This document shows, one piece after another, positions 32,774-52,861 of a stretch of 64,000 bases of DNA (its first letter is position 1; each line of letters starts with the position of its first letter). The notes under the pieces were generated by a model. That model had not been told where the DNA came from, made no database searches, and worked only from the letters and a program-made list of their open reading frames with translations. The DNA is from Candidatus Bathyarchaeota archaeon (GTDB lineage Archaea > Thermoproteota > Bathyarchaeia > Bathyarchaeales > Bathycorpusculaceae). The stretch lies in the NCBI GenBank assembly GCA_026014615.1, contig JAOZHZ010000027.1:18920-82919 (forward strand). Direction: 5' to 3'. A program made the position numbers and the translations under genes.

Positions 32774-33937
32774 CTATTTGAGGGCTTTTGCAAGTTCTTG
32801 GGCTTTGTCGGTTCGCTCCCAGGGGAGGTCGATGTCTTCTCTGCCGAAGTGCCCAAACACTGCAGTTTGCCTGTAAATTGGTCGCAGCAACTGCAGGTGT
32901 TCGATGATGGCTTTGGGTCGCATGTCAAAGTTTTTGTGGACCAACGCTAGGATTTCTTCGTCGCTGCATTTGCCTGTGCCAAACGTGTTTACGAGGACGC
33001 TGATGGGTTGGGCGACGCCGATGGCGTAGCTGATTTGGATTTCGCATTGTTCTGCTAGTCCTGCGGCGATGATGTTTTTGGCGATGTAGCGTGCCATGTA
33101 GCATCCGCTGCGGTCTACTTTGCTGGGGTCTTTGCCGCTGAAGCATCCGCCACCGTGGCTGCCGACGCCTCCGTAGGTGTCGACGATGATTTTTCTGCCT
33201 GTGAGTCCTGAGTCGGCGAGGGTTCCGCCGATGACGAAGCGTCCGGTGCCGTTGATGATGTATTTGGTGTCTGGTCGGAGCAGGTTTTTGGGGATGATGT
33301 GTTTGATGACTTTTTCGATGATTTCTTTTTTGAGTTCTGTGTCGTTTAACCCGCCGTTGTTCTGCGCGGCGATGACGACTGCGGTTACGCATTGGGGTTT
33401 GCCGTCGAGGTATTCGACGGTGACTTGGCTTTTGCAGTCGGGGCGTAGGCAGGGGATGATTTTTTTGTGTCTGCATTCCGCCAGTCGCTTCACCAGTTTG
33501 TGTGAGAGCATGATGGGTAGGGGCATGAGTTCTTTGGTTTCGTTGGTGGCGTATCCGAAGACCATGCCTTGGTCTCCTGCGCCTTGTTCGTGTCCTTCCG
33601 ACTCGGTGACTCCCATCGAAATGTCCGGGCTCTGCTCGGTGAGGGAGACAAGTATGCCGCAGGTTTCCCAGTCTAAGCCGTCTTTGGCGTTGTCTAAGCC
33701 GATTTCTTTGAGGGCGACTCGGACGATTTTTGGGATGTTTACGTAGGTTTTGGTGGTGATTTGTCCGGTGACGACGACGGTTCCCTGCATGACGAGGGTT
33801 TCGGCGTCTACGCGGGCTTTGGGGTCTTTACATAAGATTGCGTCTAAGATGCTGTCGGAGACTTGGTCAGAAACCTTGTCTGGGTGACCTTCCCCGACTG
33901 ATTCAGACGTAAACAAGTATTTGCCGTCTTTTTTCAT
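32774..33937 (-). CDS. metK: S-adenosylmethionine synthetase, bacterial/eukaryal MetK type
   Basis: [43 protein letters not shown]. 387 aa. Confidence 0.95.
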
Positions 33938-38539: not shown

Positions 38540-39103
38540 TTAGGTTACCCAATCAGCCAAAACCACTTTGTTCGTGTTATAATACTTCTCCACCTGCACT
38601 ATACGTCTAGCCACGAGCCTTGCTATGACTCGGTGTGTTTTGACTCTGGACAGCCCCGTTTTCCAGCGAATGTCCTTTTGAAGCATAGTTCTGTTCTCGG
38701 TAGCGGCAAGAGCCTCAACCACTTTCCGCTCGTCTGGACTAAGAACCCGCAGAACTGCCTCAAGCGTTTGGCTGCTTTCCTTCGGGGTTTGAACGGGAAC
38801 CGACGAAACAGGCGAAACAGCTGTCTCCTTTTCTGCTTCTGTGGCAAGGGCTGGTTTCTTCTCAACCTTTCTCTCAGGATACAAAACCCCATAAATCACC
38901 ACCACCGCCGCAATAGCCAAAGGAACAACAAAAACTAGAAGCCAAACCCCACGCAAATCAACGGAAGTAGACATCATCTGTGAACCGTGTCCCCTGCCCT
39001 CTGAAACGCCGCCCTCAGAGAAAAACAGAACCAGCCCAACCAAACTTACAACAACCAGCACCGCCGCGACGGCTAAAACAGCTTTCCGCATCCTGTCAAC
39101 CAC
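38540..39103 (-). CDS. Membrane-anchored winged-helix regulator
   Basis: Two N-terminal TM helices and a linker are followed by the C-terminal wHTH LSPDERKVVEALAATENRTMLQKDIRWKTGLSRVKTHRVIARLVARRIV. Confidence 0.65.
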   Translation of the reverse strand: MVDRMRKAVLAVAAVLVVVSLVGLVLFFSEGGVSEGRGHGSQMMSTSVDLRGVWLLVFVVPLAIAAVVVIYGVLYPERKVEKKPALATEAEKETAVSPVSSVPVQTPKESSQTLEAVLRVLSPDERKVVEALAATENRTMLQKDIRWKTGLSRVKTHRVIARLVARRIVQVEKYYNTNKVVLADWVT

Positions 39104-39226
39104 TGAAACATTATACCCGCATGGACATATAAGGTGTTTCAGTTTTTGAAACGCACGTTACAGCCAACAACTAAACCATGTTTCAGCTCTAATGGGTTCC
39201 AGCAGAAAAGTGGAGGTGAAAAAAGA

Positions 39227-39664
39227 ATGAACCGCAAACTAATCCTGTTGGCTGGACTCGCAATCGCCCTCATAGTCGTACCACTCGCGGCAGCGGCTCC
39301 CTCATCTTTGCAGAACATGGCTCAAAACGGCGACGCCTTGCAGCTTCAAGACCAACAGCAAGACCAAACTCAGCTACAAACCCAAGACTGCAACCAAACC
39401 GCAGAATGTACTGGTCAGCAGACTCAAAACAGACAACAACTCCAAACCCGAGACTGTAACAGCACAGGCACCTGCACCGAAGGCTGCAACCAGACACAAC
39501 AACAAACCCAAACCCGCCTGCAAGCCTGTACAGAAAACCAAACCAGCACCGGCGCATCGGGAAACAATAACGCTGAAGCCCACTGCTACTGCTACGCCTA
39601 CAGCCAACAGAATCAAAACCCGCAAGGCAGTCAAGGAAACCAAGCAAGCAGACAAAACCGCTAA
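39227..39664 (+). CDS. Small secreted Gln/Thr-rich protein with 8 Cys
   Basis: A GGAGGTG RBS precedes the ATG. The signal peptide reads MNRKLILLAGLAIALIVVPLAAAAP. Reiterated DCN(Q/S)T and CT(G/E) motifs follow, and the protein ends HCYCYAY... Confidence 0.6.
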   Translation: MNRKLILLAGLAIALIVVPLAAAAPSSLQNMAQNGDALQLQDQQQDQTQLQTQDCNQTAECTGQQTQNRQQLQTRDCNSTGTCTEGCNQTQQQTQTRLQACTENQTSTGASGNNNAEAHCYCYAYSQQNQNPQGSQGNQASRQNR

Positions 39665-39767
39665 CTTTGCGGGGTACCTGCTAAATTCGTAGTTTCCCTT
39701 CTTTTCATTAAAATTAAAACAGCAGAAGGTTTCTTTTAACAAGTAAGAAAACTGGAAAAGAAGCGGT

Positions 39768-40847
39768 TTATTGCTTCTTGAGGTAGTTGGGGTCCTCGCG
39801 GAGAACCTTTGGTATGTAGTTGCAGGCGGGGTCTGATTCGAACAGGTCGCCTGTGTAGTATTCAGCGCGTGTTCGGCAGCCACCGCAAATTTCGCGGTAC
39901 TCACAAACACCACACTTACCCTTAATGTTGCTCTTATCCCGAAGCTTTAGGTGAAGTTCGCTTTGCTGCAGTTCATCCCACACTTGGGTCAGTTTCTTGT
40001 CCTTGACGTTGCCCAGACGGTAACCTTCGTGGAAGCCACAGCTGCGGTAGTCACCGTTTTCGGTTATACTAACGTAGTTGCCGCCGATGGTGCATCTGCC
40101 CAAGTAACCGTTCTGGTACCACTCCCAGAAGTCCACAGGGTTCTTCTGGCGCACGATTCGCGCGTAAAAGGGTGAGTAAACGTTGATTTTGGTCCTGCCC
40201 ATAAGTTTGCGTTGCAAGTCATAGATTTCATCAAAAGCCTTCTCGTACTGTTCGGGGGTTGGAGCCAAATCAGGCATGTTGCTACCTGCTCTACCCACAG
40301 GCACAAGGTTATGGTACACAACCATGCGGGCTCTGTATTCTTCTCCTAATGCTGCAGGGTGAGCCATGTCGTTAATGTTGTACTTAGTCATAGTTGTGAC
40401 GATGCAGTCCAGAAGGTCATTTTCAGAAAGTTTCTTCATGGCATGAAGCGCTTTATCGTAGCCACCTTTGCGTCGGATAATATCGTTTGACTCGCGGTTT
40501 CCGTCCACACTGACTGCAGTGTGTACCTCGTATTTGGCGAGTTTGTCGAGGCGTTCTTGGTCAAACACGAAGCCGCTGGTGATGAGGCTGACTTCCATGC
40601 CGTACTCCTTTTCGGCGTAGGCAATGATGTCAAAAATGTCGTCACGAATCATAGGTTCTCCGCCGCTGATTCCAAACCATGGAGAACCAAATTCGTGAAT
40701 CTCGTCAACCATGTGATAAGCTTCTTTCGTGCTTAATTCTTGGTCTTTGGCGTATTCTTTAGTGTAGCTGCAGTACATGCAGCTGCCGACACAGTTCCTT
40801 GTACATCGCCATGTTACCATGAACAATGGCGCTTTAGAGTTAGCCAT
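39768..40847 (-). CDS. Radical SAM/SPASM-domain enzyme (AhbC/AhbD/NirJ-like), paralog 1
   Basis: CVGSCMYC is the CxxxCxxC motif. GISGGEP is present. The C-terminal auxiliary-cluster region is GKCGVCEYREICGGCRTRAEYYTGDLFESDPAC. Confidence 0.8.
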   Translation of the reverse strand: MANSKAPLFMVTWRCTRNCVGSCMYCSYTKEYAKDQELSTKEAYHMVDEIHEFGSPWFGISGGEPMIRDDIFDIIAYAEKEYGMEVSLITSGFVFDQERLDKLAKYEVHTAVSVDGNRESNDIIRRKGGYDKALHAMKKLSENDLLDCIVTTMTKYNINDMAHPAALGEEYRARMVVYHNLVPVGRAGSNMPDLAPTPEQYEKAFDEIYDLQRKLMGRTKINVYSPFYARIVRQKNPVDFWEWYQNGYLGRCTIGGNYVSITENGDYRSCGFHEGYRLGNVKDKKLTQVWDELQQSELHLKLRDKSNIKGKCGVCEYREICGGCRTRAEYYTGDLFESDPACNYIPKVLREDPNYLKKQ

Positions 40848-41183
40848 CAAACTCACAACTTCAAATAGATGAAATCTTTGCGATATAAGATTTCCTATTA
40901 AAACGGGCATGTTAAGGCGCGCCGTTTTTAACCTGTTTAATGTTATCTGCAGAAATAAGCGGTTTTTACCCTAAAACCGTTTGTATTTTAAAGTTTTCTC
41001 GGAAACCTGCAAAGTGCGCTTATTTCTTTGTCTAAAAAAGCTTTTGGCATGTTTCTGTTCACAACGACACTTTTGCTTGCTCATATTTGCATTATTGTTG
41101 CCGTTAAGAATCATCTTACTAGAAAATCTTATAAACCAAGTGCCATAGAGCTTTTTTAGATTTCCAACAAAGGAGATTAGGAA

Positions 41184-42560
41184 ATGTCTAAACCAAAAGA
41201 ATACTCGTCTATGACCAAAGATAAACTGATGACCTACACTTTCGTTGCACTCTTGATTCTCGCAATAGTTACATCCATCATGTGGTCAGGAATAGGCACA
41301 GAATCCTTGATAACAACTCCATCAGGCTGGAACCTAGGGCTTACAGTTGCCCTTAGCTGCATAATCGCCGTCGGAATTGCTGTCGGACTCGACTTGTTCC
41401 TCCACAAAATCGCCGTCGACAGCCAACTGAACACAATGTCCTCAGCAGTTTTCGGTTTAATCGTTGCACTCTCGTACACCCTTGGCATCCCCGCAATGAA
41501 TTCAGGCGAAATGTTACCTATAGAAGCCCCTGGAGCATTCATTTACATCGCGCTTATCTCTACAGTCGGTCTGGTTGTCTTCAAGAAAGTCCTTGGCGGA
41601 TCGGGCAAGAAACCTGTAAACCCCGCAGCAGCCGCAAAATTCCTCGTACTCCTACCAATGCTCAACTCTATGCTAATTGTTTCCGACCACCTCAAAACAG
41701 GTATGCTAGGTGTACCTTCACTGGCTGGTCCCATAGGGTATGACATTATAAACGGAAACGGGTTCGGTTCATTTGCAGGTTATATTCAAACATGCTATGC
41801 TAATCCAACTCTTGCTCTTCCAAGTGTCACCACAACTAACGACGTACTCAACCTCATGCTGCTGCAAAAGTTCCACGGGTGGATTGGTGGAGCCTCAAGC
41901 ATCGCTGTTATTGTTGTAGGTTTAGGACTCTTCATAGTCGCACGCCGATACATCAAATGGAGAATCACATTCTCATACCTTGTAGCCACTGCATTATTCG
42001 CGTTTCTCATGAGCTATGCTTACGGCGGAGACCCACTGCTACGCATAATTTTCCACCTGTTCATGGGCAGCTCAATATTCCTAGCGTTCTTCATGGCAAC
42101 TGATCCCGCAAGCACACCAATAACGTATGCTGGTCAAATATTGTTCGGTATAGGCTTAGCCGCTATCACCATAGTGCTGCAAACATATGCAAGCTTCTTC
42201 GGAGGATCAATACTTGCGTTAATAATCATGAACTTAGTGGCGTCAAAGCTGGACATTATCGGAAAACTTAAACCCACCACCGAAACAAAAGAACCTAAAC
42301 TTCCAAAAGCCAAAGCCTTCCCGCCAGAAGCAATCAAAGAATATCCCTGCATGAGATGCGGTGCTTGTATGCGTGTGTGCTGCCACAAACTGAGTCCAAT
42401 CCTGATTAAGCAAGCCTTCGACAAGCAAGACTTCGATGCTCTCATAAAACTCCACCCTGACTACTGTACTGGTTGTGGACACTGCACTTTCGTTTGCCCC
42501 GCAAGAATCGACCTGCGAAAGAGTGTACTTCAAGCAAAAGGCGCGCTACGCGGAGAGTAG
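41184..42560 (+). CDS. RnfD/NqrB-family membrane protein fused to a C-terminal 2x[4Fe-4S] ferredoxin domain
   Basis: The polytopic part has NPAAAAKFLVL and FFMATDPASTP (RnfD-like). The C-terminus has CMRCGACMRVC and CTGCGHCTFVCP. Confidence 0.7.
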   Translation: MSKPKEYSSMTKDKLMTYTFVALLILAIVTSIMWSGIGTESLITTPSGWNLGLTVALSCIIAVGIAVGLDLFLHKIAVDSQLNTMSSAVFGLIVALSYTLGIPAMNSGEMLPIEAPGAFIYIALISTVGLVVFKKVLGGSGKKPVNPAAAAKFLVLLPMLNSMLIVSDHLKTGMLGVPSLAGPIGYDIINGNGFGSFAGYIQTCYANPTLALPSVTTTNDVLNLMLLQKFHGWIGGASSIAVIVVGLGLFIVARRYIKWRITFSYLVATALFAFLMSYAYGGDPLLRIIFHLFMGSSIFLAFFMATDPASTPITYAGQILFGIGLAAITIVLQTYASFFGGSILALIIMNLVASKLDIIGKLKPTTETKEPKLPKAKAFPPEAIKEYPCMRCGACMRVCCHKLSPILIKQAFDKQDFDALIKLHPDYCTGCGHCTFVCPARIDLRKSVLQAKGALRGE

Positions 42561-42776
42561 CAAGCCTCCTTTTTCCTTTTTTGTTAATAAATTCGTTTCT
42601 TGTTCTCTTGTTTTTCTTGTTTGTTAAACAACATTGGTGCCATGGGCGTCCAATCGGTTTGCTGTTTGTTTTCAATTCCTTATTTAGTTGCCGTAATCAG
42701 GTGCCTTCTGCTATGAGTAGGCATTAAATTTATAAACGCGCCCAAACGTATAGATGAATCAAAAGAGGGAAAACAA

Positions 42777-43484
42777 TTGGAAACAGAGAGATTTAAAATT
42801 AAAGACATCGGCTACGGTCTAGTAGTACCAGTAGTAGTTGGCCTGATTATCATCGCTTTCCCCGCAATTCTCCGTCCCGCTTTAGACAGTTGGTTCCCCG
42901 CTGCAGACATGATGATGGGCGTAGAAGGATCACCCTACGCGTTCATAACTGCAATCTTGACACACGGCTTTGCGCAGATGGTCATATTTGCGATTCCGCT
43001 TATTCTAGGTTTGATTTGGAACAAGTGGGCTGGTGGCGCAGCAGGCTTCCTGATGGGTACATTGTATTACGTTGCTAACGCTGGCTACAACATCATGCTT
43101 AGCTCAACGATAGGCATACAAGTCGTACAGGCATATGGCATTGAAGCACTTGACGCAAGCTTATTCCCGAATCTTTTCGCAGACCCAAGTTTCATCGGAA
43201 ACTACATCGTTGGCGGAATACTGGTAGGCTACATTGCAGGGTCACTGAATAACGGCTCCTACAGCTTTAAACGCATGCTCGGCGCAGGACTCACAGCCGC
43301 AATCACCGTCGGAGTGCTTCAGTTCGTCCTCAACATGACCGTTGCATATGGAGCATGGATGTCACAAGGCGACCCATTCCAAGCGTTCTACTTGGTAATG
43401 CTGCCGATGGCAGTCCTTGGCGTACTTGCACCAGTCATCGGTAAAGTAATGACTTGGTATGGTCTACAGCCAGTAAGACAATAG
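42777..43484 (+). CDS. Hypothetical polytopic membrane protein
   Basis: 235 aa with ~6 TM helices and no Cys. It lies downstream of the RnfD-like gene, with a TATA-like AAATTTATAAAC ~45 nt upstream. Confidence 0.6.
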   Translation: METERFKIKDIGYGLVVPVVVGLIIIAFPAILRPALDSWFPAADMMMGVEGSPYAFITAILTHGFAQMVIFAIPLILGLIWNKWAGGAAGFLMGTLYYVANAGYNIMLSSTIGIQVVQAYGIEALDASLFPNLFADPSFIGNYIVGGILVGYIAGSLNNGSYSFKRMLGAGLTAAITVGVLQFVLNMTVAYGAWMSQGDPFQAFYLVMLPMAVLGVLAPVIGKVMTWYGLQPVRQ

Positions 43485-43625
43485 CAAGCCATTTTCCTTT
43501 CTCTTTTTCCTTTCTCTTTTCTTTTTATTAACGCAAACCAAAACTCGCTTTTGACGAAACCTAACTTCACGTTACGCAAAAAACTTGGATAAAAACGAAA
43601 GAAAAGAAAGGAAGTAAGTTCTTCT

Positions 43626-44924
43626 TTAATCGGTATGTTTAGGCGCGAATTCCCATGCGATGTTGCCTTTCCAGACTTCACCCTGCTTTGTCAAGCGAAC
43701 TTCTTTGTCGTCGATTTCAATTAAGCCCTTTGCCTTGAGCCGTTCAAGTTGTCGAGGGAAAACGTCTTCAGGAATCTTGCCGAATTTCTCCATGAACTCC
43801 TGTTTGCTCACTGGCAAACGAATGTAAAGCCTGCTCATTTCGCGGCGCATCATGTCGTCGTCAGTGGATTTCGAGAGCCTTTGAATTGGCAGTTTGCCTG
43901 ACTGCACTATCGACATGTAGGTGTTTATGTCGTCGGCGTTGCTGTAGCTGAACCGTTGCAGGTAACCCATAAAACAGCCTGCACCAGTCGTTAAAATTCC
44001 GCCCCATGGCCAACCATTGAGGCAGTTTTCGCGCATGTGCCATTCAACGCGGCTGAAGCGGTCGTGACCCACCGCCTTGTAGCCTGCTCCCGTTAAAAGC
44101 TTGTAGGCAGCAAGGTACATTTCCTTCTCAAAATCGCCGTCGCCCTGTGGTGGAACTACACCATTCTGAATCATTTTCTCCAGCGCTGTTCCAGGATCAA
44201 CATGCAGAGAATAGCAGTCAATTTCTACGTCAAGCTCAATGGCTTTTTTAAGGGTTTCTATCCAGCTTTCCATGGTTTGAGTTGGGAAGTTATACATAAA
44301 ATCCACGCAGACACACAAGCCCAGTTTGCGTGCATGGCGGATGGCTTTTTCTACGTTCTCTGCTGAGTCCGGCAGACACATCAACTTACGGAGTCCATCA
44401 TCGAAAGTTTGGGCACCCATATCCACCTGATAGGTGCCATATTCAGCTAACTTGTCAATTTTTTTGAGGTCCAACGTCTTGGATGAGGCGGATACTTTTA
44501 TGAAATATTCTTCGTTTAAGTTGAAGTTTGCTTTGCAGAAGTCAATGAGGTCAATCATCTGCTCAGCACTGAGTACACTGGGTGTTCCGCCGCCTAACAC
44601 AATCTCGTCGAACACGCTGGTTTTGATGTATTTGGTTTTAGCGTACATCAACAGCTCTTTCTTTAGCATCTTCAAGTATTGTTCTATTTGCACTTTGGTT
44701 GTTGCAGTGGTGGGGACGTAGCAGAATGCGCATCGGCTGTCACATATGGATATCCACGGCTGTAATTCCATCAGTCTGCCTGATGTGTTTTCTGTGTTCA
44801 GGAACTCCATAAATTCCTGATAAGTTTCAGGTTTGATGTCTGGGTAGTCCCTGTAAGTGTGTGGCGGCCAATTTGCTCGCTCTTCATAAGCTTCTGACTT
44901 ATTTTGCGTTGTGGAGTTTTTCAT
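43626..44924 (-). CDS. HemN/HemW-like radical SAM protein (coproporphyrinogen-III-oxidase family)
   Basis: CDSRCAFCY motif, LGGGTPS, and a C-terminal HemN_C-like region. Confidence 0.8.
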   Translation of the reverse strand: MKNSTTQNKSEAYEERANWPPHTYRDYPDIKPETYQEFMEFLNTENTSGRLMELQPWISICDSRCAFCYVPTTATTKVQIEQYLKMLKKELLMYAKTKYIKTSVFDEIVLGGGTPSVLSAEQMIDLIDFCKANFNLNEEYFIKVSASSKTLDLKKIDKLAEYGTYQVDMGAQTFDDGLRKLMCLPDSAENVEKAIRHARKLGLCVCVDFMYNFPTQTMESWIETLKKAIELDVEIDCYSLHVDPGTALEKMIQNGVVPPQGDGDFEKEMYLAAYKLLTGAGYKAVGHDRFSRVEWHMRENCLNGWPWGGILTTGAGCFMGYLQRFSYSNADDINTYMSIVQSGKLPIQRLSKSTDDDMMRREMSRLYIRLPVSKQEFMEKFGKIPEDVFPRQLERLKAKGLIEIDDKEVRLTKQGEVWKGNIAWEFAPKHTD

Positions 44925-45103
44925 TTTTGAAGCCTCAAACGTCCAACTTGGAAAAAAGCGTTTGATGACATAATAAAGTTTCCGTTGGAACTATAAACCC
45001 GCCGAAAATTCGTTTTTGACGTAGCTTTTTGAATAATGCAGAATTAAATCGGCTGATTACGAGCGGTGCAAAAAGAAAATGAAAACGAAATAAGGAAAAA
45101 TGG

Positions 45104-46183
45104 TTATTGTTGTTTTTCGCGTAGTGCTTTGGGTATGTATGGGCAGGCGGGGTCTGATTCGTACATGTCGCCCGTGTAGGCGTAGGCGCGGTTTCTGCAT
45201 CCGCCGCAGATGTCGCGGTATTCGCATACTCCACATTTGCCTTTGAGTAAGTTTCGGTCTTGGAAGCTGCTGTAGAAGGGTGAGGCTTTGACTTCTTTCC
45301 AAGCTTCTTGTAGGGTTTTGTTGCGGATGTTGCCGAGGCGTTGGTGATCTGTGGGGGTGAGGTCGGTGTAGAAGCAGGGGATGAGGTCGCCGTTTTCGGT
45401 GACGCTGACGTAACCGCCGAAAGCGAAGTAGGTGCATTTGCCGTGGAACTTGTGTTCGTACCATTCGTCAAAGTTGGGGATGTTGCGTTGCTTCACTACG
45501 CGGGCGAAGTGGGGGCAGTGAACGTGGATTTCGAATTTTTTCTCGTATTTGACGGTGAGGTCCCAGATGTGGTTTAGTGTCCACTCGTATTGTTCTGGTG
45601 AGGGTGCAAGCTCCATGGTTATTTTGGCTCTGCCGCTGGGCACCAGATGGTTGTACCAGACGAAGTTGGCGTGGTATTTGTCGGCGAGTTCGGCGACGTG
45701 GTCTAGGTGTTGGTAGTTTATGGTGGTTATGGCGCAGGCTAAGCCGTTGAGGATTTTGCCCTTTGACAGTTTTTCGATGGCTGCGAGGGCTTTTTTGTAG
45801 CTGCCTTTGCCGCGGAGTTGGTCGTTGATTTCTTCGGGTCCGTCGATGCTTACGCTGGTCCAGACTTGGTTTTTGACTAGGTTATCGTAGATTGAGCCGT
45901 CGACGAATACGCCGTTGGTGAGGAGGCAGACGTTGAGTCCTTTGCTTTTGGCGTAGGTTACGATTTCGAAGATGTCGGGTCGGGTGAGGGGTTCGCCGCC
46001 TTTGATGCCGAACCATCGGACGCCGAACTTGCTGACTTCGTCTACGAGGTGGAAGGCTTCTTTGGTGGTGAGTTCGTTGGGGGCTTTGGCGCCTGTGGCG
46101 TCTACGTTGCAGTATATGCATCGGGCGTTGCAAGCTCCTGTGGCTCGCCAAGAAGTCATAAGTAACGGACCTTCATGTTTCAT
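45104..46183 (-). CDS. Radical SAM/SPASM-domain enzyme, paralog 2
   Basis: CNARCIYC, GIKGGEP and GKCGVCEYRDICGGCRNRAYAYTGDMYESDPAC. It is roughly half identical by eye to 39768..40847. Confidence 0.8.
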   Translation of the reverse strand: MKHEGPLLMTSWRATGACNARCIYCNVDATGAKAPNELTTKEAFHLVDEVSKFGVRWFGIKGGEPLTRPDIFEIVTYAKSKGLNVCLLTNGVFVDGSIYDNLVKNQVWTSVSIDGPEEINDQLRGKGSYKKALAAIEKLSKGKILNGLACAITTINYQHLDHVAELADKYHANFVWYNHLVPSGRAKITMELAPSPEQYEWTLNHIWDLTVKYEKKFEIHVHCPHFARVVKQRNIPNFDEWYEHKFHGKCTYFAFGGYVSVTENGDLIPCFYTDLTPTDHQRLGNIRNKTLQEAWKEVKASPFYSSFQDRNLLKGKCGVCEYRDICGGCRNRAYAYTGDMYESDPACPYIPKALREKQQ

Positions 46184-46318
46184 AAACAAGAATTCCCCTT
46201 TGTTTGTGTCCTGAATTATGTACGATAGTTTTAGAGTTGCCAACCTAAAAAAGATTATGCGGTTCATTTCGTTTTCGAAGTTGGCTTGTTGTTTAGTGTT
46301 TTTTGGTTTTTGTCGGAG

Positions 46319-46372: not shown

Positions 46373-48262
46373 CTAAATCTCGCCTGTCAGTTTTTTTCTA
46401 AACGTCGCCGCACCCAAACAGGTTGCCAAAGCCAAAACCAAAACTCCCAGAGGTGTTATTTCGGGAATTGTTGGTGATTCTGAAGGGATAGGTGTTTCGG
46501 TTGTTGAAGGACTGGGTGATGGGTTTGGTTTGGGCGCAGTAAAAGGAACCATGAGTGGGTAGCTGTCTTTGTTTTTGTTGTCCAGCACGTGGGGTGTATC
46601 GCCTCTGCCGTCGCCGTCTGTGTCTGTTCCGTTGTAGCTGCTCCAGTAGTTACCTATGGTATCGTTGCTCCAAATGTTCTCTGACTGTGTGGCTGCCGGT
46701 CTATGGTAAACGATGTCGTCAATTAGAGTTTGGTTTGTGATGAAGTTATTGTTATAGAAAACTGAGCGCGAAGAGGCGCTAAAAGAAATTGTGGCTTGTC
46801 TTGAATCGGTGAAATTGTTTTCTTTTATGATGTTTCGGAACGAGGATAAAAAGCCAAGGCTGACTGCATTTCCTGTCACGTTATTTCCAACTATTTCATT
46901 GTAGTACGACCCAGAAAGCTGTATACCGTAACCGCTTTGATTTACAACAGTGTTGCCTATGATGATGTTTCGGTCGGAGCCATCATTGACGATGGAAATT
47001 CCCGTGTACCCAACTCGATTATCCTCATAGGTGGTTGCGGTTATTTCATTTGCTTCTATTCTATTGTCAGATGCCGCGGAGAGGCTTATGCTCCAATCAT
47101 CGTTTGTCAATTGGTTCTTTAAGATAACGTTATTCGCGGATGAATCAAGACTAATTGCAGCGTTATCGATGTTCGTTAGGAAGTTTTCTGCTATCCTGTT
47201 GCCATCCGAATAGGTCACTGTGATTCCGTTCACTGCTGCGTCAATTGTGTTTTCAGTTATGTTTATGTCCTCGGACTGTTCCACTTGGATTGCTTGGGTG
47301 CTTGATTTCATGTTGTTGGCTGAGACTGTGCAGTTGGAGGAAAACTGAAGCCATATGTCAAACTGATTGCTGCTTAGACTGTTCCGCGTTACGGTAGTGT
47401 TCATGTTGTTAATGATTAGTATCCCAAAGTATTCTCGGTCAATGTTGAAGTCTTGAGCTGTCATACCTGTGCAGTTTACCATTGCCAAGACGCCAAGATT
47501 TGGGCATGAAGAGGGCGTAAGCACTTGGTCTCTTTGATAAATGAGGTAATAGATGCTTTTGCCATTAACCAGATTGGACGAGTCGACCTCGTTATCGTAA
47601 TGGGTCGTATCCGTGCCCGAAACAACAAACCCATAAGAGTTGTTCGTCATGCTGTTTTTGCTCAATGTGTTGCCCCAAGAAGCCGAAAGCTTTACGCCGT
47701 TCTTACCATTTGAAACGGTGTTTCCTGTGATGTTGTTGTCTGAGGCGTGGTCAATAATTATGCCGTTTTCATTATTCACCGCTGAATTGCTAAAAACGCT
47801 GTTGTCAGAAGCTCCGTATAGCCATATGCCATAGCGGCAGTCAACCACCTCATTATCGAACACCTGACAATTGCGGACATGAAGCAAGTGAATTCCAGCA
47901 AGTCTGCCCCGCGTGTGGTTTGTGTCAAGTGCGTCAGGTCCCCCATCTATTGTAAATCCCGTTATGGTAACACCGTCTCTGCGGACAAGCATCGTGGTTT
48001 CAACACTGAGTCCATAAACCTCCGTTAAGCCTTTGCCTTCACCCTTCAACGTTATAGCCTTGTTCACAACGACAGACTCAACGTATACGCCTGCCCTAAC
48101 AAACACGGTGTCGCCATCTACGGCGTTATCGATGGCTTCTTGAATTGTTGAATAATCGTCTGGAACGACGATTGTTCTGCTGGCATGTGCAGGTTGAAAG
48201 GCAAAGATGCTTAACGCAAACAGTACGATTAAAGTGAAAGCAAAAACGCTGGTTTTGTTCAT
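46373..48262 (-). CDS. Secreted right-handed beta-helix (NosD/CASH-like) protein with a PEF-CTERM-like tail (PEI variant)
   Basis: A signal peptide is followed by IVVPDDYSTIQEAIDNAVDGDTVFVRAGVY and many N-rich ~23-aa repeats. The tail is PTIPEITPLGVLVLALATCLGAATFRKK. Confidence 0.85.
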   Translation of the reverse strand: MNKTSVFAFTLIVLFALSIFAFQPAHASRTIVVPDDYSTIQEAIDNAVDGDTVFVRAGVYVESVVVNKAITLKGEGKGLTEVYGLSVETTMLVRRDGVTITGFTIDGGPDALDTNHTRGRLAGIHLLHVRNCQVFDNEVVDCRYGIWLYGASDNSVFSNSAVNNENGIIIDHASDNNITGNTVSNGKNGVKLSASWGNTLSKNSMTNNSYGFVVSGTDTTHYDNEVDSSNLVNGKSIYYLIYQRDQVLTPSSCPNLGVLAMVNCTGMTAQDFNIDREYFGILIINNMNTTVTRNSLSSNQFDIWLQFSSNCTVSANNMKSSTQAIQVEQSEDINITENTIDAAVNGITVTYSDGNRIAENFLTNIDNAAISLDSSANNVILKNQLTNDDWSISLSAASDNRIEANEITATTYEDNRVGYTGISIVNDGSDRNIIIGNTVVNQSGYGIQLSGSYYNEIVGNNVTGNAVSLGFLSSFRNIIKENNFTDSRQATISFSASSRSVFYNNNFITNQTLIDDIVYHRPAATQSENIWSNDTIGNYWSSYNGTDTDGDGRGDTPHVLDNKNKDSYPLMVPFTAPKPNPSPSPSTTETPIPSESPTIPEITPLGVLVLALATCLGAATFRKKLTGEI

Positions 48263-49974
48263 CGTTTTCTACCTTTTTTCAACGCTAGAAGTGCAACTGA
48301 AACTGTCGTTATAACAAGCAAAACCGATAGTGTAGTAAATTCTGGCACAGTCGGAGATGGCGAGGCAGTTGGAGCTGAGCTGGCAGCGCTTGTAGGTGAG
48401 AGTGAGAGCTTAGGAGTCGCTGGTGTGGCGTTGTTGCTTGTTGCGGCAGCTTTAATTTTTACGAGCCAAGCATAAGAATTTCCATCTTGAGAAGCGACGC
48501 CTGTGACTGCATATCCTCCGTCGCGGGTCTGAATTACCGAATGTGCTTGACCGCCTGGACCTACGCCTTTTGTCCATTCTATGGTGCCTTCGGAGTCAGT
48601 TTTGACAAGTGTTAGTCCTGAACATAGAATGTAGCCGCCGTCGGTTGTGCTTACCATGGATAAGGGTGTGCCGCCGGGGTACTTGTTCTTCCACAGTACG
48701 TTGCCGTTTGTGTCGGTCTTGACGAGTCCCGCCATATTGTCCCAGTTAGCGCGGTTCCACATCATACCTGCCAATACGTATGTGCCATCGCTGTTTTGAA
48801 CGATGGACCAGCCGTAATCTTTGTCGCTGCTACCGTAGGTTTTGCTCCACTCCAAATCGCCCGAAGAATTAGTCTTGACCAACAAGAAATCTGAGTTGAA
48901 ACTAGTGCTTCCTAACATTGCATATCCTCCGTCGAGAGTTTGGATGACTGAGTGAGCTTCGCCTGACGTGATATTAGTATATGTTTTGTTCCATACTGTT
49001 AGACCTTGTGAGTTGGTTTTGGCAAGCCAAACCTGGTCATTTGGGCCAAGCTCGTTTAGACCTGCGATTGTGAATCCGCCATCGTCCGTTTGGATAATTA
49101 AATAAGCTATGGCTCCTGCCAAAAGGGTTCTGTTCCACTCCAGATTTCCATAAGCATCGGTTTTAATCAGGTGAGCCCCGCTAACTATAGCGAACCCTTC
49201 ATCGGGTGTATTGACGAGACGAGTTTGGTCCCGACCCGAACTCAATAGGATATCATCGTATATTTTTGTCCATTCTGTATTTCCATTAGCATCGGTTTTC
49301 AAAATCAACTTTCCAGCTATTACATATCCGCCATCGTTGGATTGGATAAGTGAGTCAACATTTTTCAGAGCGGTTCCTTCATACGTTTGCACCCATTCTT
49401 CCGACGGGGAAGGAGATGGAGCAGAAGAATTTGCTGGTTGGTTCTCATTAGATGCGTTGGATGCTTCAGGAGTCAAATCCACCGTGAAGTAGACCGTTGA
49501 AATGCTCGTGACCCAATATAGGGTTGAGTTTCCGGGCAAAACGGGTCCTCCTGAATAGACTGTTACGCTGTGGTTGCCTTCCGATAAAGTCAAGTTTTCA
49601 GAGTGACTAAACCTTGGAATGCCCGGAGGTGACCTGGACCGGTATGATGTGCAATAGTATAATGTAACGTAGTTTGAGCCGTTTATGACGTTGGTGTCGT
49701 CTATGGCGTATCGGATTCTGGCTAAACCCGCATCTACGGATATGGGAGGCTCTGGTTTGCTTGTGTTGAAGTTGAATGGGATGTTGTTGGATATGTAGAC
49801 TGTGTTGTTTTGTGGGCTTGAAATCTCGATGCTTGGCGGGACTGTGTCGGGAATTGGTTCAGCTTCGCTGAAGATAATCCACGTATTAGCATTTGCCACA
49901 TCAACCAAGCTTCCCGACGAAGCCAGAAGAGCAGCTGCGAAAATCAAAGTCGGAAAGCATAATTTGTTTTTCAT
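48259..49974 (-). CDS. Secreted protein with an N-terminal Ig-like region plus a 7x 'DGGY' repeat propeller, PEF-CTERM
   Basis: Seven ~50-aa repeats (QSNDGGYVIAG ... QTRDGGYAVTG). The tail is PSPTVPEFTTLSVLLV...KKGRKR. ATGA overlap with the downstream gene. Confidence 0.85.
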   Translation of the reverse strand: MKNKLCFPTLIFAAALLASSGSLVDVANANTWIIFSEAEPIPDTVPPSIEISSPQNNTVYISNNIPFNFNTSKPEPPISVDAGLARIRYAIDDTNVINGSNYVTLYYCTSYRSRSPPGIPRFSHSENLTLSEGNHSVTVYSGGPVLPGNSTLYWVTSISTVYFTVDLTPEASNASNENQPANSSAPSPSPSEEWVQTYEGTALKNVDSLIQSNDGGYVIAGKLILKTDANGNTEWTKIYDDILLSSGRDQTRLVNTPDEGFAIVSGAHLIKTDAYGNLEWNRTLLAGAIAYLIIQTDDGGFTIAGLNELGPNDQVWLAKTNSQGLTVWNKTYTNITSGEAHSVIQTLDGGYAMLGSTSFNSDFLLVKTNSSGDLEWSKTYGSSDKDYGWSIVQNSDGTYVLAGMMWNRANWDNMAGLVKTDTNGNVLWKNKYPGGTPLSMVSTTDGGYILCSGLTLVKTDSEGTIEWTKGVGPGGQAHSVIQTRDGGYAVTGVASQDGNSYAWLVKIKAAATSNNATPATPKLSLSPTSAASSAPTASPSPTVPEFTTLSVLLVITTVSVALLALKKGRKR

Positions 49975-51536
49975 TGATGTCGCTTCCTTAAAGTAAACGC
50001 GGTTATGCCTGTTGTGGCTGCCAAAACCAAGATGGCTACTGAATTAAACTCAGGTACGGTGGGCGACGGCGATGCCAAAGTTATGTTGGGTGATGATGTA
50101 CTTGGCTGCTCGGTTGACTTTGGTGTTGATGTGGGCGTAGTTGAACTTGCTTCGCGGTATCCGATGGGTGTGTATTGGTCGTTTATGGAATAGTGGTTTT
50201 CTTCTTTGAAGATGCCTCCTATAGCGTACAACTGATCATTTAGGCATATGACGATTACGTCGCCAAAGTTTTCCATGCGGTTGGTTCTTTGTATAGGCGT
50301 AGCAAGTGTCCAGTTGTCGTTTGCTGGGTCGTAGACTTGGTTTAATCCTCCGCCGATAACGTAGATTCGCTTAGGCGCTAAAACTCCCGACGTAGTGGCT
50401 GCGCTTCGACCGCTTTCCGCATTTGGTATTGGTGTTCCTATCTTCCAAGTGTCCGTTTTGGGGTCGTAGATTTGGGTTAAGTTGACGCGGTTTAGGGTTG
50501 TGCTGTTGGCTTCTCGTGTGTAGCCGCCAATCACATAGATTTTGCCGTCAACTACCGCCGAAGCATAATAAGAAACAGGTGTCGGGATGGGCGTCTTTGT
50601 AGTCCAAGTATCCGTGATGGGGTCATAAACTTCGGTTACATTAATGATCTCGCGTGTTACTCTGTTGTCAATCCTTATCTCTTCGTTTGATGTGCCGCCT
50701 ATGAGGTAGATTTTGTCGTCTACAAGGTGTGCATTCATCCCTGACTTCTTAGTGGGCATTGGTGTTTTGCTTTGATTCCACGTATCCGCACTGGGATTGT
50801 AGGACCACACCGTGTCTGTGCCGCTTCCTGACAAAAACCAGCTTCCCCCAAAAACGTAGATTTCTCCTTCGTATGCAGCAACGCCAGAGCCTCCTCTTGT
50901 GCTGGGCATGGATTTTTTCGTAGTCCATTTGTCTGTTTCTGGGTTGTATTCTTGATTAACTTTGCATGGAACACCGCCGTCGCTAAACAGGCAACCGCCT
51001 AGAGCGTAAATTTTGTCATCAACAACCGCAAGACCCACCGCGTACCTTGTCGCCTGATACGCTGACTTTGCTGCCCATGAATCGGCATGCACCTCAGTGC
51101 TTTCGTATTCTACGATTAACGTGTAGGTTATCACGTTTGAGGCTGTTATATTCAGCTGGATGGTGACTTGACCTGTTTCGTTTCCCAAGTGTTCCAGCCC
51201 TATTATCCATGTTCTGTTACTTGCGCCTGTATTGTTTGAAATAGACCCTTTTCTTTCTGAACCGAAAGCTAACCACATTTCTGCTTGCCCGGAAGCAGTA
51301 TAGTTACCTCTAACACGCCAGTGAGCTTGATTGAGTACGAGTATGTCCACGGTTTGGCTTTGATTGCCCGTTATGGTCTGGACGTAAACCCACTGCGGCT
51401 CAGGCTGGTCCGGAGGTAGAGATGGCGGATAGCAGTAAGGATTGGCGTTAGTCACATTAGCAACCTGAATTACAGCCAAAACGGAAATTGCGAGAATAAG
51501 GCTGACCATTGCTGTTGAGGGTGTTTTTGTGTTCAT
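49971..51536 (-). CDS. Secreted Kelch-repeat beta-propeller protein, PEF-CTERM
   Basis: Six Kelch-type blades (DDKIYALGG, GEIYVFGG, DDKIYLIGG, DGKIYVIGG, KRIYVIGG, NDQLYAIGG). The tail is PSPTVPEFNSVAILVL...RKRHQ. Confidence 0.85.
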   Translation of the reverse strand: MNTKTPSTAMVSLILAISVLAVIQVANVTNANPYCYPPSLPPDQPEPQWVYVQTITGNQSQTVDILVLNQAHWRVRGNYTASGQAEMWLAFGSERKGSISNNTGASNRTWIIGLEHLGNETGQVTIQLNITASNVITYTLIVEYESTEVHADSWAAKSAYQATRYAVGLAVVDDKIYALGGCLFSDGGVPCKVNQEYNPETDKWTTKKSMPSTRGGSGVAAYEGEIYVFGGSWFLSGSGTDTVWSYNPSADTWNQSKTPMPTKKSGMNAHLVDDKIYLIGGTSNEEIRIDNRVTREIINVTEVYDPITDTWTTKTPIPTPVSYYASAVVDGKIYVIGGYTREANSTTLNRVNLTQIYDPKTDTWKIGTPIPNAESGRSAATTSGVLAPKRIYVIGGGLNQVYDPANDNWTLATPIQRTNRMENFGDVIVICLNDQLYAIGGIFKEENHYSINDQYTPIGYREASSTTPTSTPKSTEQPSTSSPNITLASPSPTVPEFNSVAILVLAATTGITAFTLRKRHQ

Positions 51537-52861
51537 TTGTACACCCTCTTTTTCTTGTACGCGAGGGAACCTGCTGTTGCAGTTGCAAGTAGGAGAAGGA
51601 TTGCGTAGATGGGAAACTCTGGAATTGACGGTGAAGGCTTTGGACTTGGAGATTGTGTCGGTGGAGACACTTGTGTTTGAGTTGGAATTGTTGTCGGTGA
51701 TTGTGAAGATGGCAAAGGAGAGGGAGACGTTTGAGCAGTCGGGTTGACGCTGGGAACAAGATTGATTTTAGCCAGCCAAGCACCAGACGAGTCACCTGCG
51801 ACCGCATAACCTCCGTCTTGTGTCTGAATAACGGAGTACGCTCGATTATTGCTAGAGAGGCATTCGTCAAAACTTACCGACCACTGTTCCTTTCCTAGAG
51901 CATCCGTTTTGACCAGAGCAGTACTCGATATTGCGAAGCCTTCGTCGCTTGTCTTTATCATGGACCAGCCTTGGTCTCCACCATAATTCTGTGTCCATTG
52001 AGTGTTACCCAATGCATCAGTTTTGACAATGGCAGTTCTTTTTGCGCTGCCTAAAGCATAGCCTCCGTCACTTGTTTGAACAAAGGCATAGACCCTTCCG
52101 AAGTCAGGGTACCTTTGGCTCCACTGCATAGTTCCATTTAAATCCATCTTTATAAGCCAACAATCGTTTTCAATTTCACCCTTACTTAAGAGTAATTTCG
52201 TTGTATGCCGTGTCAGTGCATATCCGTCATCACTTGTTTGGATAACCGAATCAGCATCGCCCTCTCCAAGAGTACTGTTCCATTGCTCATTTCCTAATAC
52301 ATCGGTTTTAAAGAGCCAAATGAAACTGGTTCCGTTTTCTGTAGGTATGCGTGAGTTACCTGTCACGACATACCCACAATCCTCAGTTTGGGCTATAGCC
52401 GATGCAGCGCCAATTCCTGTTCCGTTATAGGTTTGATTCCACTGCATATTGCCTTCGTTGTCTACTTTTACCAACAAACAACTGCCCGCTTGTTGACCCG
52501 CAAATGCGTATCCGCCATCGCTGGTTTGAATAAGCCATTTACCAAAAATGCCTGTTGCGCCTAAGTAGGTCTTGTTCCATATCGGGTTCCCCAAAGAATC
52601 AACCTTCAGCAGCCCAATGCCCGGAGTTGAATTGTTCGGTGGTCTCAAGCCGCCAAGCAAAAATCCCCCATCTGCAGCTTGAATTACAATCCAGACCGAC
52701 TCCAAATTGCTTTCTACATAAGTACGACTCCAAATTATCGAAGGCGTCATCGATGCTGACTTAGTGCTGGGCAAATTAGAAACAGAATGCACAATACTAA
52801 CAAAAACCAATCCAAAAATTATTACTGTGATCAGAAATACTTTTAGGATCGATTTCTTCAT
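51533..52861 (-). CDS. Secreted 7x 'DGGY' repeat propeller protein, PEF-CTERM (first gene of a 4-gene operon)
   Basis: A signal peptide is followed by repeats QAADGGFLLGG ... QTQDGGYAVAG. The tail is PSPSIPEFPIYAILLLL...KKKRVYK. Confidence 0.85.
   Translation of the reverse strand: MKKSILKVFLITVIIFGLVFVSIVHSVSNLPSTKSASMTPSIIWSRTYVESNLESVWIVIQAADGGFLLGGLRPPNNSTPGIGLLKVDSLGNPIWNKTYLGATGIFGKWLIQTSDGGYAFAGQQAGSCLLVKVDNEGNMQWNQTYNGTGIGAASAIAQTEDCGYVVTGNSRIPTENGTSFIWLFKTDVLGNEQWNSTLGEGDADSVIQTSDDGYALTRHTTKLLLSKGEIENDCWLIKMDLNGTMQWSQRYPDFGRVYAFVQTSDGGYALGSAKRTAIVKTDALGNTQWTQNYGGDQGWSMIKTSDEGFAISSTALVKTDALGKEQWSVSFDECLSSNNRAYSVIQTQDGGYAVAGDSSGAWLAKINLVPSVNPTAQTSPSPLPSSQSPTTIPTQTQVSPPTQSPSPKPSPSIPEFPIYAILLLLATATAGSLAYKKKRVYK

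Follow-up and report, generated by a model that had tools for sequence, protein, structure and literature searches.

The stretch of DNA analysed here, hereafter the window, comprises 64,000 nucleotides of contig JAOZHZ010000027.1 (positions 18,920 to 82,919) from a Candidatus Bathyarchaeota archaeon (assembly GCA_026014615.1). Five of its genes are the subject of this work: SPASM-A and SPASM-B, which encode paralogous radical S-adenosylmethionine (SAM) enzymes with a SPASM domain; a gene for a HemN-like radical SAM enzyme; RnfD-Fd, whose product joins an RnfD/NqrB-type membrane domain to a ferredoxin-like domain; and TM6, which encodes a six-helix membrane protein (Table 1). The original prediction, made from the sequence of the window, had grouped these genes with two others, for a membrane-anchored winged helix-turn-helix (wHTH) regulator and for a cysteine-rich protein. 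ORF listing (ORF, open reading frame) and translation recovered all seven genes at their predicted coordinates. Synteny in related loci divides them, as five genes form a unit and the wHTH and cysteine-rich genes lie outside it. The five genes constitute a conserved module, seen here only in Bathyarchaeia, and in about half of the relatives the module has six genes.

Table 1. Positions of the cluster genes and of neighbouring features in the window.
Feature	Position	Strand	Description
SPASM-A	39768..40847	-	Radical SAM/SPASM protein, AhbD/NirJ/Gms-like clade; 359 amino acids from Met at 40847; ORF without Met choice extends to 40910
B recognition element (BRE)/TATA-like promoter element	41122..41134	+	In the divergent intergenic region of SPASM-A and RnfD-Fd
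RnfD-Fd	41184..42560	+	RnfD/NqrB-type membrane domain and RnfC-type C-terminal 2x[4Fe-4S] domain
TM6	42777..43484	+	235 amino acids; six-helix membrane protein, family unnamed
HemN-like enzyme	43626..44924	-	432 amino acids; Radical_SAM and HemN_C; convergent with TM6, co-directional with SPASM-B
SPASM-B	45104..46183	-	SPASM-A paralogue; 359 amino acids from Met at 46183; upstream of the HemN-like gene, same strand; ORF without Met choice extends to 46267
Putative wHTH protein	38540..39103	-	Membrane-anchored; outside the conserved unit
Gln/Thr/Asn/Cys-rich protein	39227..39664	+	Signal-peptide-like start; outside the conserved unit
Shadow ORFs	39374..39913, 44935..45471	-	Overlap real genes on other frames
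MetK	32774..33937	-	Bacterial-type S-adenosylmethionine synthetase
PEF-CTERM operon	46373..52861	-	Four surface-protein genes

To compare the locus among lineages, we scanned one genome per GTDB species, and 252 of these species genomes contain a relative of the RnfD-Fd gene. Bathyarchaeia is the label of nearly all of the best 80, apart from a few metagenome-assembled genomes (MAGs) with odd labels. The related set comprises 82 Bathyarchaeia loci, 80 of them from distinct GTDB species genomes. Synteny was counted by tblastn with the window proteins, scoring only loci with sufficient flank, and the recurrence of neighbours was assessed by all-against-all clustering of ORFs within 10 kb on either side in the 82 loci. 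The original prediction had asked whether RnfD-Fd and TM6 co-occur with the radical SAM genes in relatives, and this co-occurrence proves strongly conserved. Specifically, SPASM-A is divergent from RnfD-Fd and at most 3 kb upstream of it in 58 of 70 loci. TM6 occurs in 60 of the 75 loci scored for it, and in 53 loci it lies downstream of RnfD-Fd on the same strand within 4 kb. The HemN-like gene is found in 58 of 65 loci (61 overall have it convergent and downstream of RnfD-Fd), and SPASM-B falls within 10 kb of RnfD-Fd in 33 of 61. Given that the genes flanking the cluster in the window recur in 11 related loci at most, the cluster has been kept beyond background synteny.

Conservation is far higher in the soluble enzymes than in the membrane proteins. 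Measured against the window proteins, median identity is 82% for SPASM-A (maximum 94%), 84% for SPASM-B and 79% for the HemN-like enzyme, compared with 61% for RnfD-Fd and 47% for TM6; SPASM-B orthologues within 10 kb are 78-90% identical. Radical SAM enzymes about 80% identical, beside membrane partners at 47-61%, point to a core rather than an accessory function. The arrangement also persists in locus L094, a deep-branching variant in which RnfD-Fd carries an additional FrhB module, although identity there drops to 48% for RnfD, 64% for the HemN-like enzyme, 55-56% for the SPASM proteins and 35% for TM6. Four loci have no SPASM-A/B, HemN-like or TM6 gene near RnfD-Fd, and two of these (L027 and L044) have the full 10 kb on both sides. 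As the original prediction had supposed, full-text literature searching found no described system of this composition. The parts come from known superfamilies, none of them reaches a curated family-level cut-off, and the combination appears to be undescribed. In a survey of Bathyarchaeota MAGs, RnfB, RnfC and RnfD appear simply as blast hits, assigned to an incomplete Rnf complex (PMC9534799).

SPASM-A and RnfD-Fd share a 336-bp divergent intergenic region. About 50 nt upstream of the RnfD-Fd start this region carries a BRE/TATA-like element, GAAA[A/G]TCTTATAA followed by AAGGAGAT, which is present in approximately three quarters of the loci despite proteins that are only about 60% identical. 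The 8-mers AAGTCTTA and AAATCTTA occur in 47 and 27, respectively, of the 82 upstream sequences scanned. Across the entire window the element matches once; this single match proves little, as 0.38 are expected by chance and 31 of 100 shuffled windows contain at least one. In 27 loci a protein of 150-153 amino acids is encoded between SPASM-A and RnfD-Fd, with an N-terminal LexA/wHTH-like domain and C-terminal transmembrane helices (for example L047 9320-9781 and L040 9288-9740, both on the minus strand). This protein may be a cluster-specific membrane-tethered regulator, unrelated to the wHTH gene of the window.

RnfD-Fd has the architecture that was predicted for it, an RnfD/NqrB-type membrane protein fused to a 2x[4Fe-4S] domain. 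The Pfam family NQR2_RnfD_RnfE matches at 125.6 bits (cut-off 27.7). The membrane domain spans approximately residues 1-365 and the iron-sulfur domain residues 382-458, and the last 75 or so residues align to positions 361-432 of the RnfC model. Structures in the PDB give the same picture: RnfD (9eri_D, 8e-18; 8ahx_D, 7e-14) and NqrB are matched by the protein, and RnfC (7zc6_C, 2e-6) by its C-terminus. Invariant in the family are two CxxCxxCxxxC motifs together with H169, C204 and H231, three residues that lie around the loop carrying flavin mononucleotide (FMN) in RnfD. The position aligned to the FMN-bearing threonine is serine in 43, glycine in 30 and proline in 10 of 84 family sequences, which means that covalent flavinylation has been lost. 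With 78 bits against a cut-off of 207 for the RnfD model (TIGR01946), the protein falls outside RnfD of the Rnf complex, and no rnfA, rnfB, rnfE or rnfG is among the recurrent neighbours in the 82 loci. More than 1500 homologues exist (the best 69% identical), nearly all Bathyarchaeia where the source is named, and the family is compact, with 34 representatives at E <=1e-30 among 1.84 billion cluster representatives. The AlphaFold2 (AF2) model is poor, with a predicted local distance difference test score (pLDDT) of 59.6.

One subclade of RnfD-Fd adds a C-terminal F420-binding FrhB/FdhB module, for a total of about 705-740 amino acids, and keeps the radical SAM and TM6 neighbours. Its members include P0060, P0102, P0242 and P0446-P0510, as well as genes at L091 970-3108 and L094 10001-12142. 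Fused variants within the same cluster suggest that RnfD-Fd is the electron-input end of something, and the fusions resemble the FpoF input module.

More distant relatives have a variety of redox partners. At L088 1510-3593 lies an RnfD-Fd fusion 34% identical to the window protein, with its closest named relative from Bacillota; the next gene encodes a membrane-anchored protein in which two FMN-binding repeats of the RnfG type carry flavinylation motifs (DVVSGSTVTS and DIVTGATVTS). A 40%-identical RnfD-like relative is preceded by a DOMON protein. In L085 (6370-9765) and L086 (4243-7638), an RnfD-like domain is fused to a formate-dehydrogenase-like molybdopterin oxidoreductase in a protein of 1131 amino acids, and genes for NuoE-like, NuoF-like and Fer2/Fer4 subunits follow. 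Two-gene pairs of RnfD and full-length RnfC occur at L087 7805-10130, L092 3859-6227 (Promethearchaeia, Asgard) and L093 8001-10354 (Thermoplasmata); the stretches read around them contain no rnfA, rnfB, rnfE, rnfG or radical SAM gene, and the pairing suggests a minimal RnfCD enzyme. Bacterial two-subunit Nqr/Rnf-like complexes likewise have an RnfD-like subunit without the flavinylation threonine (PMC11334425). Taken with the RnfG, DOMON, RnfC and formate-dehydrogenase-like partners of its relatives, this points to RnfD-Fd as the membrane end of a short electron chain fed from the cytoplasm.

TM6, the constant operon partner of RnfD-Fd, fits the earlier description as a six-helix protein of unnamed family, and this family was encountered in Bathyarchaeia only. 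Its 1566 homologues are all labelled hypothetical, none has a Pfam domain, and the window protein matches no Pfam or NCBIfam family. The AF2 model (pLDDT 75) has six helices. In a Foldseek search of the PDB its top ten matches are all S-components of energy-coupling factor (ECF) transporters, with RibU first (E 0.06-0.2, TM-score 0.33-0.59). At the sequence level, 25 family members searched against Pfam at E <=10 gave no S-component, and neither ecfT nor ecfA is among the recurrent neighbours of the 82 loci. The modelled fold thus weakly resembles ECF S-components, and TM6 may bind a small ligand within the membrane. A role as an RnfA/E-like subunit was considered and ruled out, because TM6 has no cysteines and no family match.

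Families were placed by curated Pfam/NCBIfam hidden Markov model cut-offs rather than by tree. SPASM-A and SPASM-B, about 45-48% identical to each other, bear out the claim of two paralogous radical SAM/SPASM enzymes. Both domains are found in each protein (Radical_SAM at 79 bits in SPASM-A; SPASM at 27.6 bits in SPASM-A and 28.7 in SPASM-B, cut-off 21.5), and the CX3CX2C motif and the full seven-cysteine SPASM motif place both in the SPASM subfamily. Orthologues keep all of these cysteines at a level of 95% or more; for SPASM-A, with 61 orthologues, they are C19, C23, C26 and the seven of the SPASM motif. A PDB sequence search with SPASM-A matched PqqE (1e-14), SkfB, CteB and BlsE only, with no tetraether synthase, AhbD or Gms structure among the matches.

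The best NCBIfam model for both paralogues is AhbD (TIGR04545), at 201.1 bits for SPASM-A and 215.6 for SPASM-B against a cut-off of 500. Ranked behind it are TIGR04053, NirJ1/NirJ2, AhbC and NirJ. AhbC (TIGR04546) scores 147.0 and 146.6 bits against 650, and the NirJ, NirJ1 and NirJ2 models 145-179 bits against 515, 650 and 500, respectively. Since both proteins match AhbD best and reach only 147 of 650 bits for AhbC, they are not an AhbC/AhbD pair. The original prediction had named the findings that would speak against a new system, namely AhbC and AhbD identity of the paralogues together with a lack of conserved synteny with RnfD-Fd. Neither was found: both proteins are far below the AhbD and AhbC cut-offs, and the synteny is conserved. 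No ahbA or ahbB is among the recurrent neighbours within 10 kb of either side in the 82 loci, a count that covers neighbourhoods only, and AhbABCD and HemBCD were present in 0 of 3 Bathyarchaeota genomes surveyed elsewhere (PMC8351635).

A lipid-active homologue of AhbD offers another comparison. Gms, which makes glycerol monoalkyl glycerol tetraethers (GMGTs) by cross-linking lipids, is recognized by being at least 400 amino acids long and by an N-terminal extension (COG4001) of about 100. The gene for the B12 radical SAM enzyme Gmm is often found beside its own, and Bathyarchaeota are rich in both (PMC11214058). At 359 amino acids, with the radical SAM motif starting at residues 15-26, SPASM-A and SPASM-B have no such extension and so are not Gms. 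Separate Gms-like SPASM genes, encoding 469-473 amino acids with a 115-117-residue extension, do occur in L033, L039 and L094. Their products score 288-316 bits with the AhbD model and rank the models as SPASM-A and SPASM-B do. Because Gms-like proteins show the same ranking at higher scores, AhbD as the top match is not evidence for haem chemistry. In these three loci the Gms-like gene is part of a recurring block beside the cluster, with genes for a DUF362 protein and for GT4 and GT2 glycosyltransferases (L033 12024-17283; L039 99-5358; L094 17094-22142).

The third enzyme had been described as HemN/HemW-like. Membership of the HemN-like superfamily stands, with Radical_SAM at 81.9 bits and HemN_C at 35.9 bits, both over their cut-offs, and a PDB match to HemN (1olt, E 4.6e-26). 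The narrower names do not, as HemW (TIGR00539) scores 146.0 bits against 205 and HemN (TIGR00538) 135.5 against 325. The best NCBIfam model is ChuW/HutW (TIGR04107), at 176.4 bits against a cut-off of 400. The HemW motif HNXXYW is absent, the sequence at that place being W295-H-M-R-E-N-C-L-N-G-W305. HemW is not known to have the N-terminal extension of HemN; here the ChuW/HutW match begins at residue 11, which indicates that the region preceding the radical SAM motif is present. Outside CX3CX2C, five further cysteines (C130, C183, C206, C301 and C317) are at least 95% conserved in 65 orthologues. These residues may belong to an auxiliary cluster or a redox site without a known counterpart in HemN.

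A sixth gene, encoding a B12-binding radical SAM enzyme, occurs in 57 related loci and is directly beside the HemN-like gene in 32 of 65. Its best models are BchE (271 bits, cut-off 481) and HpnJ (235 bits). There is no such gene anywhere in the 64-kb window. Roughly half of the relatives thus have the B12 gene as a cluster member, a point missed in the first reading of the window, as were the resemblance of TM6 to ECF S-components and the loss of the flavinylation threonine from RnfD-Fd.

The two genes set aside above are specific to the window. The wHTH gene has counterparts in 2 of the 82 loci and the cysteine-rich gene in none. In L083, the closest relative examined (TM6 89% identical), a P-type ATPase gene replaces both, and the DUF4443, ATP_bind_1, Kelch and SHMT flanks are retained. 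Their membership of the system is therefore ruled out, the two wHTH occurrences apart. The product of the wHTH gene does have two N-terminal transmembrane helices, as predicted, and its wHTH part consists of weak matches (E about 3e-4) under the cut-offs. The sequence features of the other protein are as described, a signal-peptide-like start and 145 amino acids with 32 Q, 15 T, 15 N and 8 C; it matches no Pfam or NCBIfam family. Being a window-specific neighbour, it is not a conserved substrate of the cluster.

The adjoining four-gene PEF-CTERM operon is real. Three of its proteins end in VPEF or IPEF, a transmembrane helix and a basic tail, and the fourth has PEITP. All four are secreted proteins: a NosD/beta-helix protein (the one with the PEITP tail), an arylsulfotransferase-like protein, a Kelch propeller and one unknown. 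At the equivalent position L083 has Kelch genes only. Elsewhere in the window, about 6 kb from the cluster, is a MetK gene with the N, M and C domains of S-AdoMet_synt; archaea usually have another type of methionine adenosyltransferase. The same gene family is also near the cluster in 8 related loci.

Across the related loci, the genes that recur beside the cluster are those of the envelope, for example for STT3-like proteins, for surface proteins with PEF-CTERM or a PQQ (pyrroloquinoline quinone) propeller, and for glycosyltransferases. In about 34-38 loci, two STT3-like membrane proteins of about 750-770 amino acids, with weak matches to the archaeosortase-A-associated oligosaccharyltransferase, are encoded 4-9 kb upstream of RnfD-Fd. 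The same region commonly contains an MtrH/MtgA-like methyltransferase and a small B12-binding corrinoid protein (examples from this region are L029 19-2325, L026 3336-5654 and L004 1834-2745).

The cluster has a membrane-tethered low-potential electron-transfer domain and three or four different radical SAM chemistries. RnfD-Fd is a viable electron-transfer partner for the radical SAM enzymes, a role that the FrhB-fused variants support indirectly by keeping the cluster. We tentatively favour, as a real possibility although not a probable one, a pathway in which radical SAM enzymes tailor a hydrophobic substrate resident in the membrane, an isoprenoid or something similar, and are served by a ferredoxin module tethered there. 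The ferredoxin domain would sit on the cytoplasmic face, as RnfC does on RnfD, and would link radical SAM enzymes docked at the membrane to an electron donor in the cytoplasm, either ferredoxin or, for the FrhB variants, F420H2. Electrons passed in this way could prime the SAM-cleaving clusters; alternatively, the SPASM auxiliary clusters could serve to remove the electron left by an oxidative step. The part of TM6 would be to hold or present the substrate, most plausibly an ether lipid of the glycerol dialkyl glycerol tetraether (GDGT) type or a lipid-soluble redox carrier, which the enzymes would cross-link, methylate or decarboxylate. Neither the tethered wHTH protein nor the cysteine-rich protein would take part.

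Several observations lead to this proposal. The five-gene synteny survives to 48% RnfD identity in L094 while flanks change, and SPASM-A and RnfD-Fd share a divergent region with a conserved BRE/TATA-like element. The C-terminal domain is specifically of the RnfC type, and in solved Rnf complexes it is RnfC that gives electrons to RnfD. Gms, an AhbD homologue, acts on lipids and clusters with Gmm (PMC11214058), paralleled here by a B12 gene in 57 loci; Gms-like and glycosyltransferase genes adjoin the cluster itself in L033, L039 and L094. Integral membrane proteins account for two of the five products, and the genes recurring nearby serve the envelope. Finally, the conserved neighbourhood is without a conserved precursor peptide or a tetrapyrrole gene.

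Other observations weigh against a lipid-tailoring pathway. SPASM-A and SPASM-B have no counterpart of the N-terminal lipid-pocket domain that defines Gms, and no lipid or quinone gene (UbiA, GGR, Tes or Grs) is consistently adjacent in the related loci. We know of no HemN-like enzyme with an archaeal lipid substrate. The nearest characterized relatives of every radical SAM type present are tetrapyrrole enzymes (AhbD/NirJ, ChuW/HemN and BchE). The resemblance of TM6 to S-components is weak (E about 0.06, without sequence support), and known S-components bind water-soluble vitamins rather than lipids. In addition, the partners of distant RnfD-Fd relatives are extracytoplasmic redox proteins, and the short stretches read around those relatives contain no radical SAM gene, so that RnfD-Fd may have a job of its own. 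The UbiE-like methyltransferases of L094, considered for a possible link to a quinone, belong to the generic class I type and are not conserved elsewhere; they give a weak hint only.

The kinship with tetrapyrrole enzymes could instead be taken at face value. In that case the SPASM pair, the HemN-like enzyme and the BchE-like B12 enzyme would modify, salvage or insert a haem-like or porphyrinoid cofactor. TM6 would be an S-component-like binder or importer, and RnfD-Fd would supply the reducing power or else receive the cofactor itself, for example via H169 and H231. We consider this unlikely, although some findings speak for it. The characterized families nearest to the cluster enzymes are AhbD/NirJ and ChuW/HutW, then HemW and HemN, with BchE in the relatives. 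In fold TM6 weakly resembles S-components, some of which take haem or cobalamin. A membrane-bound nitrate reductase receives its haem from HemW (PMC10114718), and in L001 the cluster adjoins cobS and a BtuFCD-like transporter. Counter to this, the scores are far under the cut-offs (201 and 216 against 500; 176 against 400; 146 against 205), both paralogues are AhbD-like with no AhbC and AhbD pair, and HNXXYW is absent. The identical ranking of models by Gms-like proteins means that ranking is no diagnosis of substrate. No ahbA/B, hem, sir or cbi gene is found among the recurrent neighbours, and the 0 of 3 result for AhbABCD and HemBCD (PMC8351635) points the same way.

RnfD-Fd and TM6 could form an unrecognized minimal bioenergetic enzyme of Bathyarchaeia, a ferredoxin- or F420H2-driven membrane oxidoreductase of the RnfD type whose carrier or cofactor is built by the adjacent SPASM, HemN-like and B12 enzymes. 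The product might be a lipid-soluble isoprenoid carrier, or a novel prosthetic group at H169/C204/H231 or in TM6. We rate this, too, as unlikely but deserving attention; if true, Bathyarchaeia have a membrane electron-transfer chemistry of their own.

A decidedly doubtful variant makes RnfD-Fd and TM6 an autonomous transmembrane conduit, a minimal Nqr/Rnf-like module that would take electrons from ferredoxin or F420H2 and deliver them to an acceptor in the membrane or outside the cytoplasm. TM6 would hold a non-covalent flavin or other carrier in place of RnfG, and the radical SAM enzymes would make or mature the unusual cofactor or carrier of the module. The bacterial two-subunit complexes with a threonine-less RnfD-like subunit provide a precedent (PMC11334425). 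So do the relatives of RnfD-Fd, including the RnfG-like partner with two flavinylation motifs in L088, the DOMON partner of the 40%-identical relative, and those fused to a formate-dehydrogenase-like domain or paired with a full RnfC. By analogy, the FrhB fusions would correspond to the FpoF input module. The best fold match of TM6 is a riboflavin binder, RibU, and the invariant H169, C204 and H231 surround the FMN loop of RnfD. Against this, nothing indicates which cofactor is involved, and the Bathyarchaeia loci do not share a conserved redox partner outside the cytoplasm. TM6 is weakly similar to RibU, and the low quality of the RnfD-Fd model makes the geometry of the putative site unreadable. 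A conduit also leaves unexplained the need for three or four different radical SAM chemistries.

It is improbable that the genes are mere neighbours, held together by inherited synteny around a housekeeping RnfD-Fd/TM6 operon without a shared function. Radical SAM genes are certainly plentiful, as Bathy-6 genomes have about 17 SPASM-type and 7-20 B12-type genes each (PMC11697101). SPASM-B and the B12 gene lie at variable distance, often split off by inserted surface-protein genes, and four loci (two of them, L027 and L044, fully flanked) are without SPASM-A/B, HemN-like and TM6 genes near RnfD-Fd. However, it is the same orthologues that recur (medians of 82% for SPASM-A and 79% for the HemN-like enzyme), in fixed orientations around RnfD-Fd in about 58-61 loci while other flanks turn over, and the arrangement holds at 48% RnfD identity. 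The persistence of specific orthologues in fixed orientations amid changing flanks is what makes mere neighbourhood unlikely.

Maturation of a ribosomally synthesized and post-translationally modified peptide (RiPP) or of a protein such as the cysteine-rich neighbour, with the SPASM enzymes and a class C methyltransferase acting on it as originally suggested, can be largely dismissed: SPASM enzymes are typically peptide or protein maturases, sub-threshold matches to mycofactocin, PqqE and sactipeptide maturase models exist and the cysteine-rich gene adjoins the cluster in the window, yet that gene has no counterpart in any related locus, L083 included, no credible conserved precursor emerged when intergenic ORFs of 25-95 amino acids were clustered across loci (the best small-ORF family, in 26 loci, looks non-coding and is missing from the window), and the recurrent neighbours include no peptidase, RiPP-recognition gene or exporter. 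A 72-amino-acid ORF in L083, tried as a precursor, also looks non-coding.

Bathyarchaeia are among the most abundant archaea of anoxic sediments, peat and soils. Their energy conservation is unresolved, and most of their radical SAM genes are without an assigned function. To our knowledge, the enzymes behind their distinctive membrane lipids, such as butanetriol dibiphytanyl glycerol tetraethers (BDGTs), are not known. The cluster is a class-wide signal, carried by most of the best 80 of the 252 genomes with RnfD-Fd relatives, and its pairing is unusual: radical SAM chemistry goes together with a pared-down Rnf element, made up of RnfD, the ferredoxin domain of RnfC and in some cases an F420 module. 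Several outcomes are conceivable: radical SAM enzymes might draw electrons from the tethered module, or discharge them into it, at the membrane; the cluster might tailor lipids or quinones by a new pathway with a bearing on sediment biomarkers; or it might prove to be a minimal Rnf/Nqr module of ancestor-like form. The function is one that we infer, and the heterologous systems already used for Gms, Gmm and Ted make the cluster testable.

Compared with known systems, the cluster shares with alternative haem biosynthesis (Ahb) plus HemW two SPASM paralogues that best match AhbD and a HemN-family protein. It differs in scoring far under the equivalog cut-offs, in having two AhbD-like paralogues and in the absence of ahbA/B nearby; with respect to HemW, the enzyme is without HNXXYW and has an N-terminal extension. 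Class C methyltransferases (ChuW/HutW and MenK/MqnK) are like the HemN-like enzyme in combining Radical_SAM and HemN_C with a GGGTP SAM-binding motif, and ChuW/HutW is its best full-length model match. Set against this are a score of 176 bits versus 400, the five additional conserved cysteines, and partners (the SPASM enzymes and RnfD-Fd) unlike those of any characterized class C system. Gms/Gmm also combines an AhbD-clade SPASM enzyme that has two auxiliary clusters with a nearby B12 radical SAM gene, as the relatives do here. SPASM-A and SPASM-B are without the COG4001 lipid-pocket domain of about 100 residues and score 201 and 216 bits with the AhbD model compared to 288-316, and this cluster has two paralogues, a HemN-like enzyme and two membrane proteins.

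Among membrane systems, TM6 is small and six-helical like ECF S-components such as RibU, ThiT and PanT, and the top ten structural matches of its model, weak as they are, are all S-components. At 235 amino acids it is longer than is typical, has an extra loop and no sequence-family match, and is partnered with RnfD-Fd. The Rnf complex (PDB 7zc6, 8ahx and 9eri) contains both the homologue of the RnfD-Fd membrane domain and, in RnfC, that of its ferredoxin-like C-terminal domain; RnfD-Fd differs in being without the N-terminal NADH/FMN part of RnfC, in the loss of the covalent-FMN site and in its 78 of 207 bits. There is also a parallel in layout with the bacterial Nqr/Rnf-like complexes, which are defined by an RnfD-like subunit with no threonine, a C-terminal NAD-binding PF00175 domain and an adjacent flavinylated NqrC/RnfG-like subunit (PMC11334425). 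RnfD-Fd is likewise stand-alone, threonine-less and fused to a cytosolic input domain, with a small operon partner. Its input is an RnfC-type 2x[4Fe-4S] domain, with or without FrhB, in place of PF00175, and a flavinylated subunit occurs only in the distant L088. In the Bathyarchaeia the host is archaeal, the partner is a cysteine-free protein with six transmembrane helices, and three or four radical SAM genes are tied to the module.

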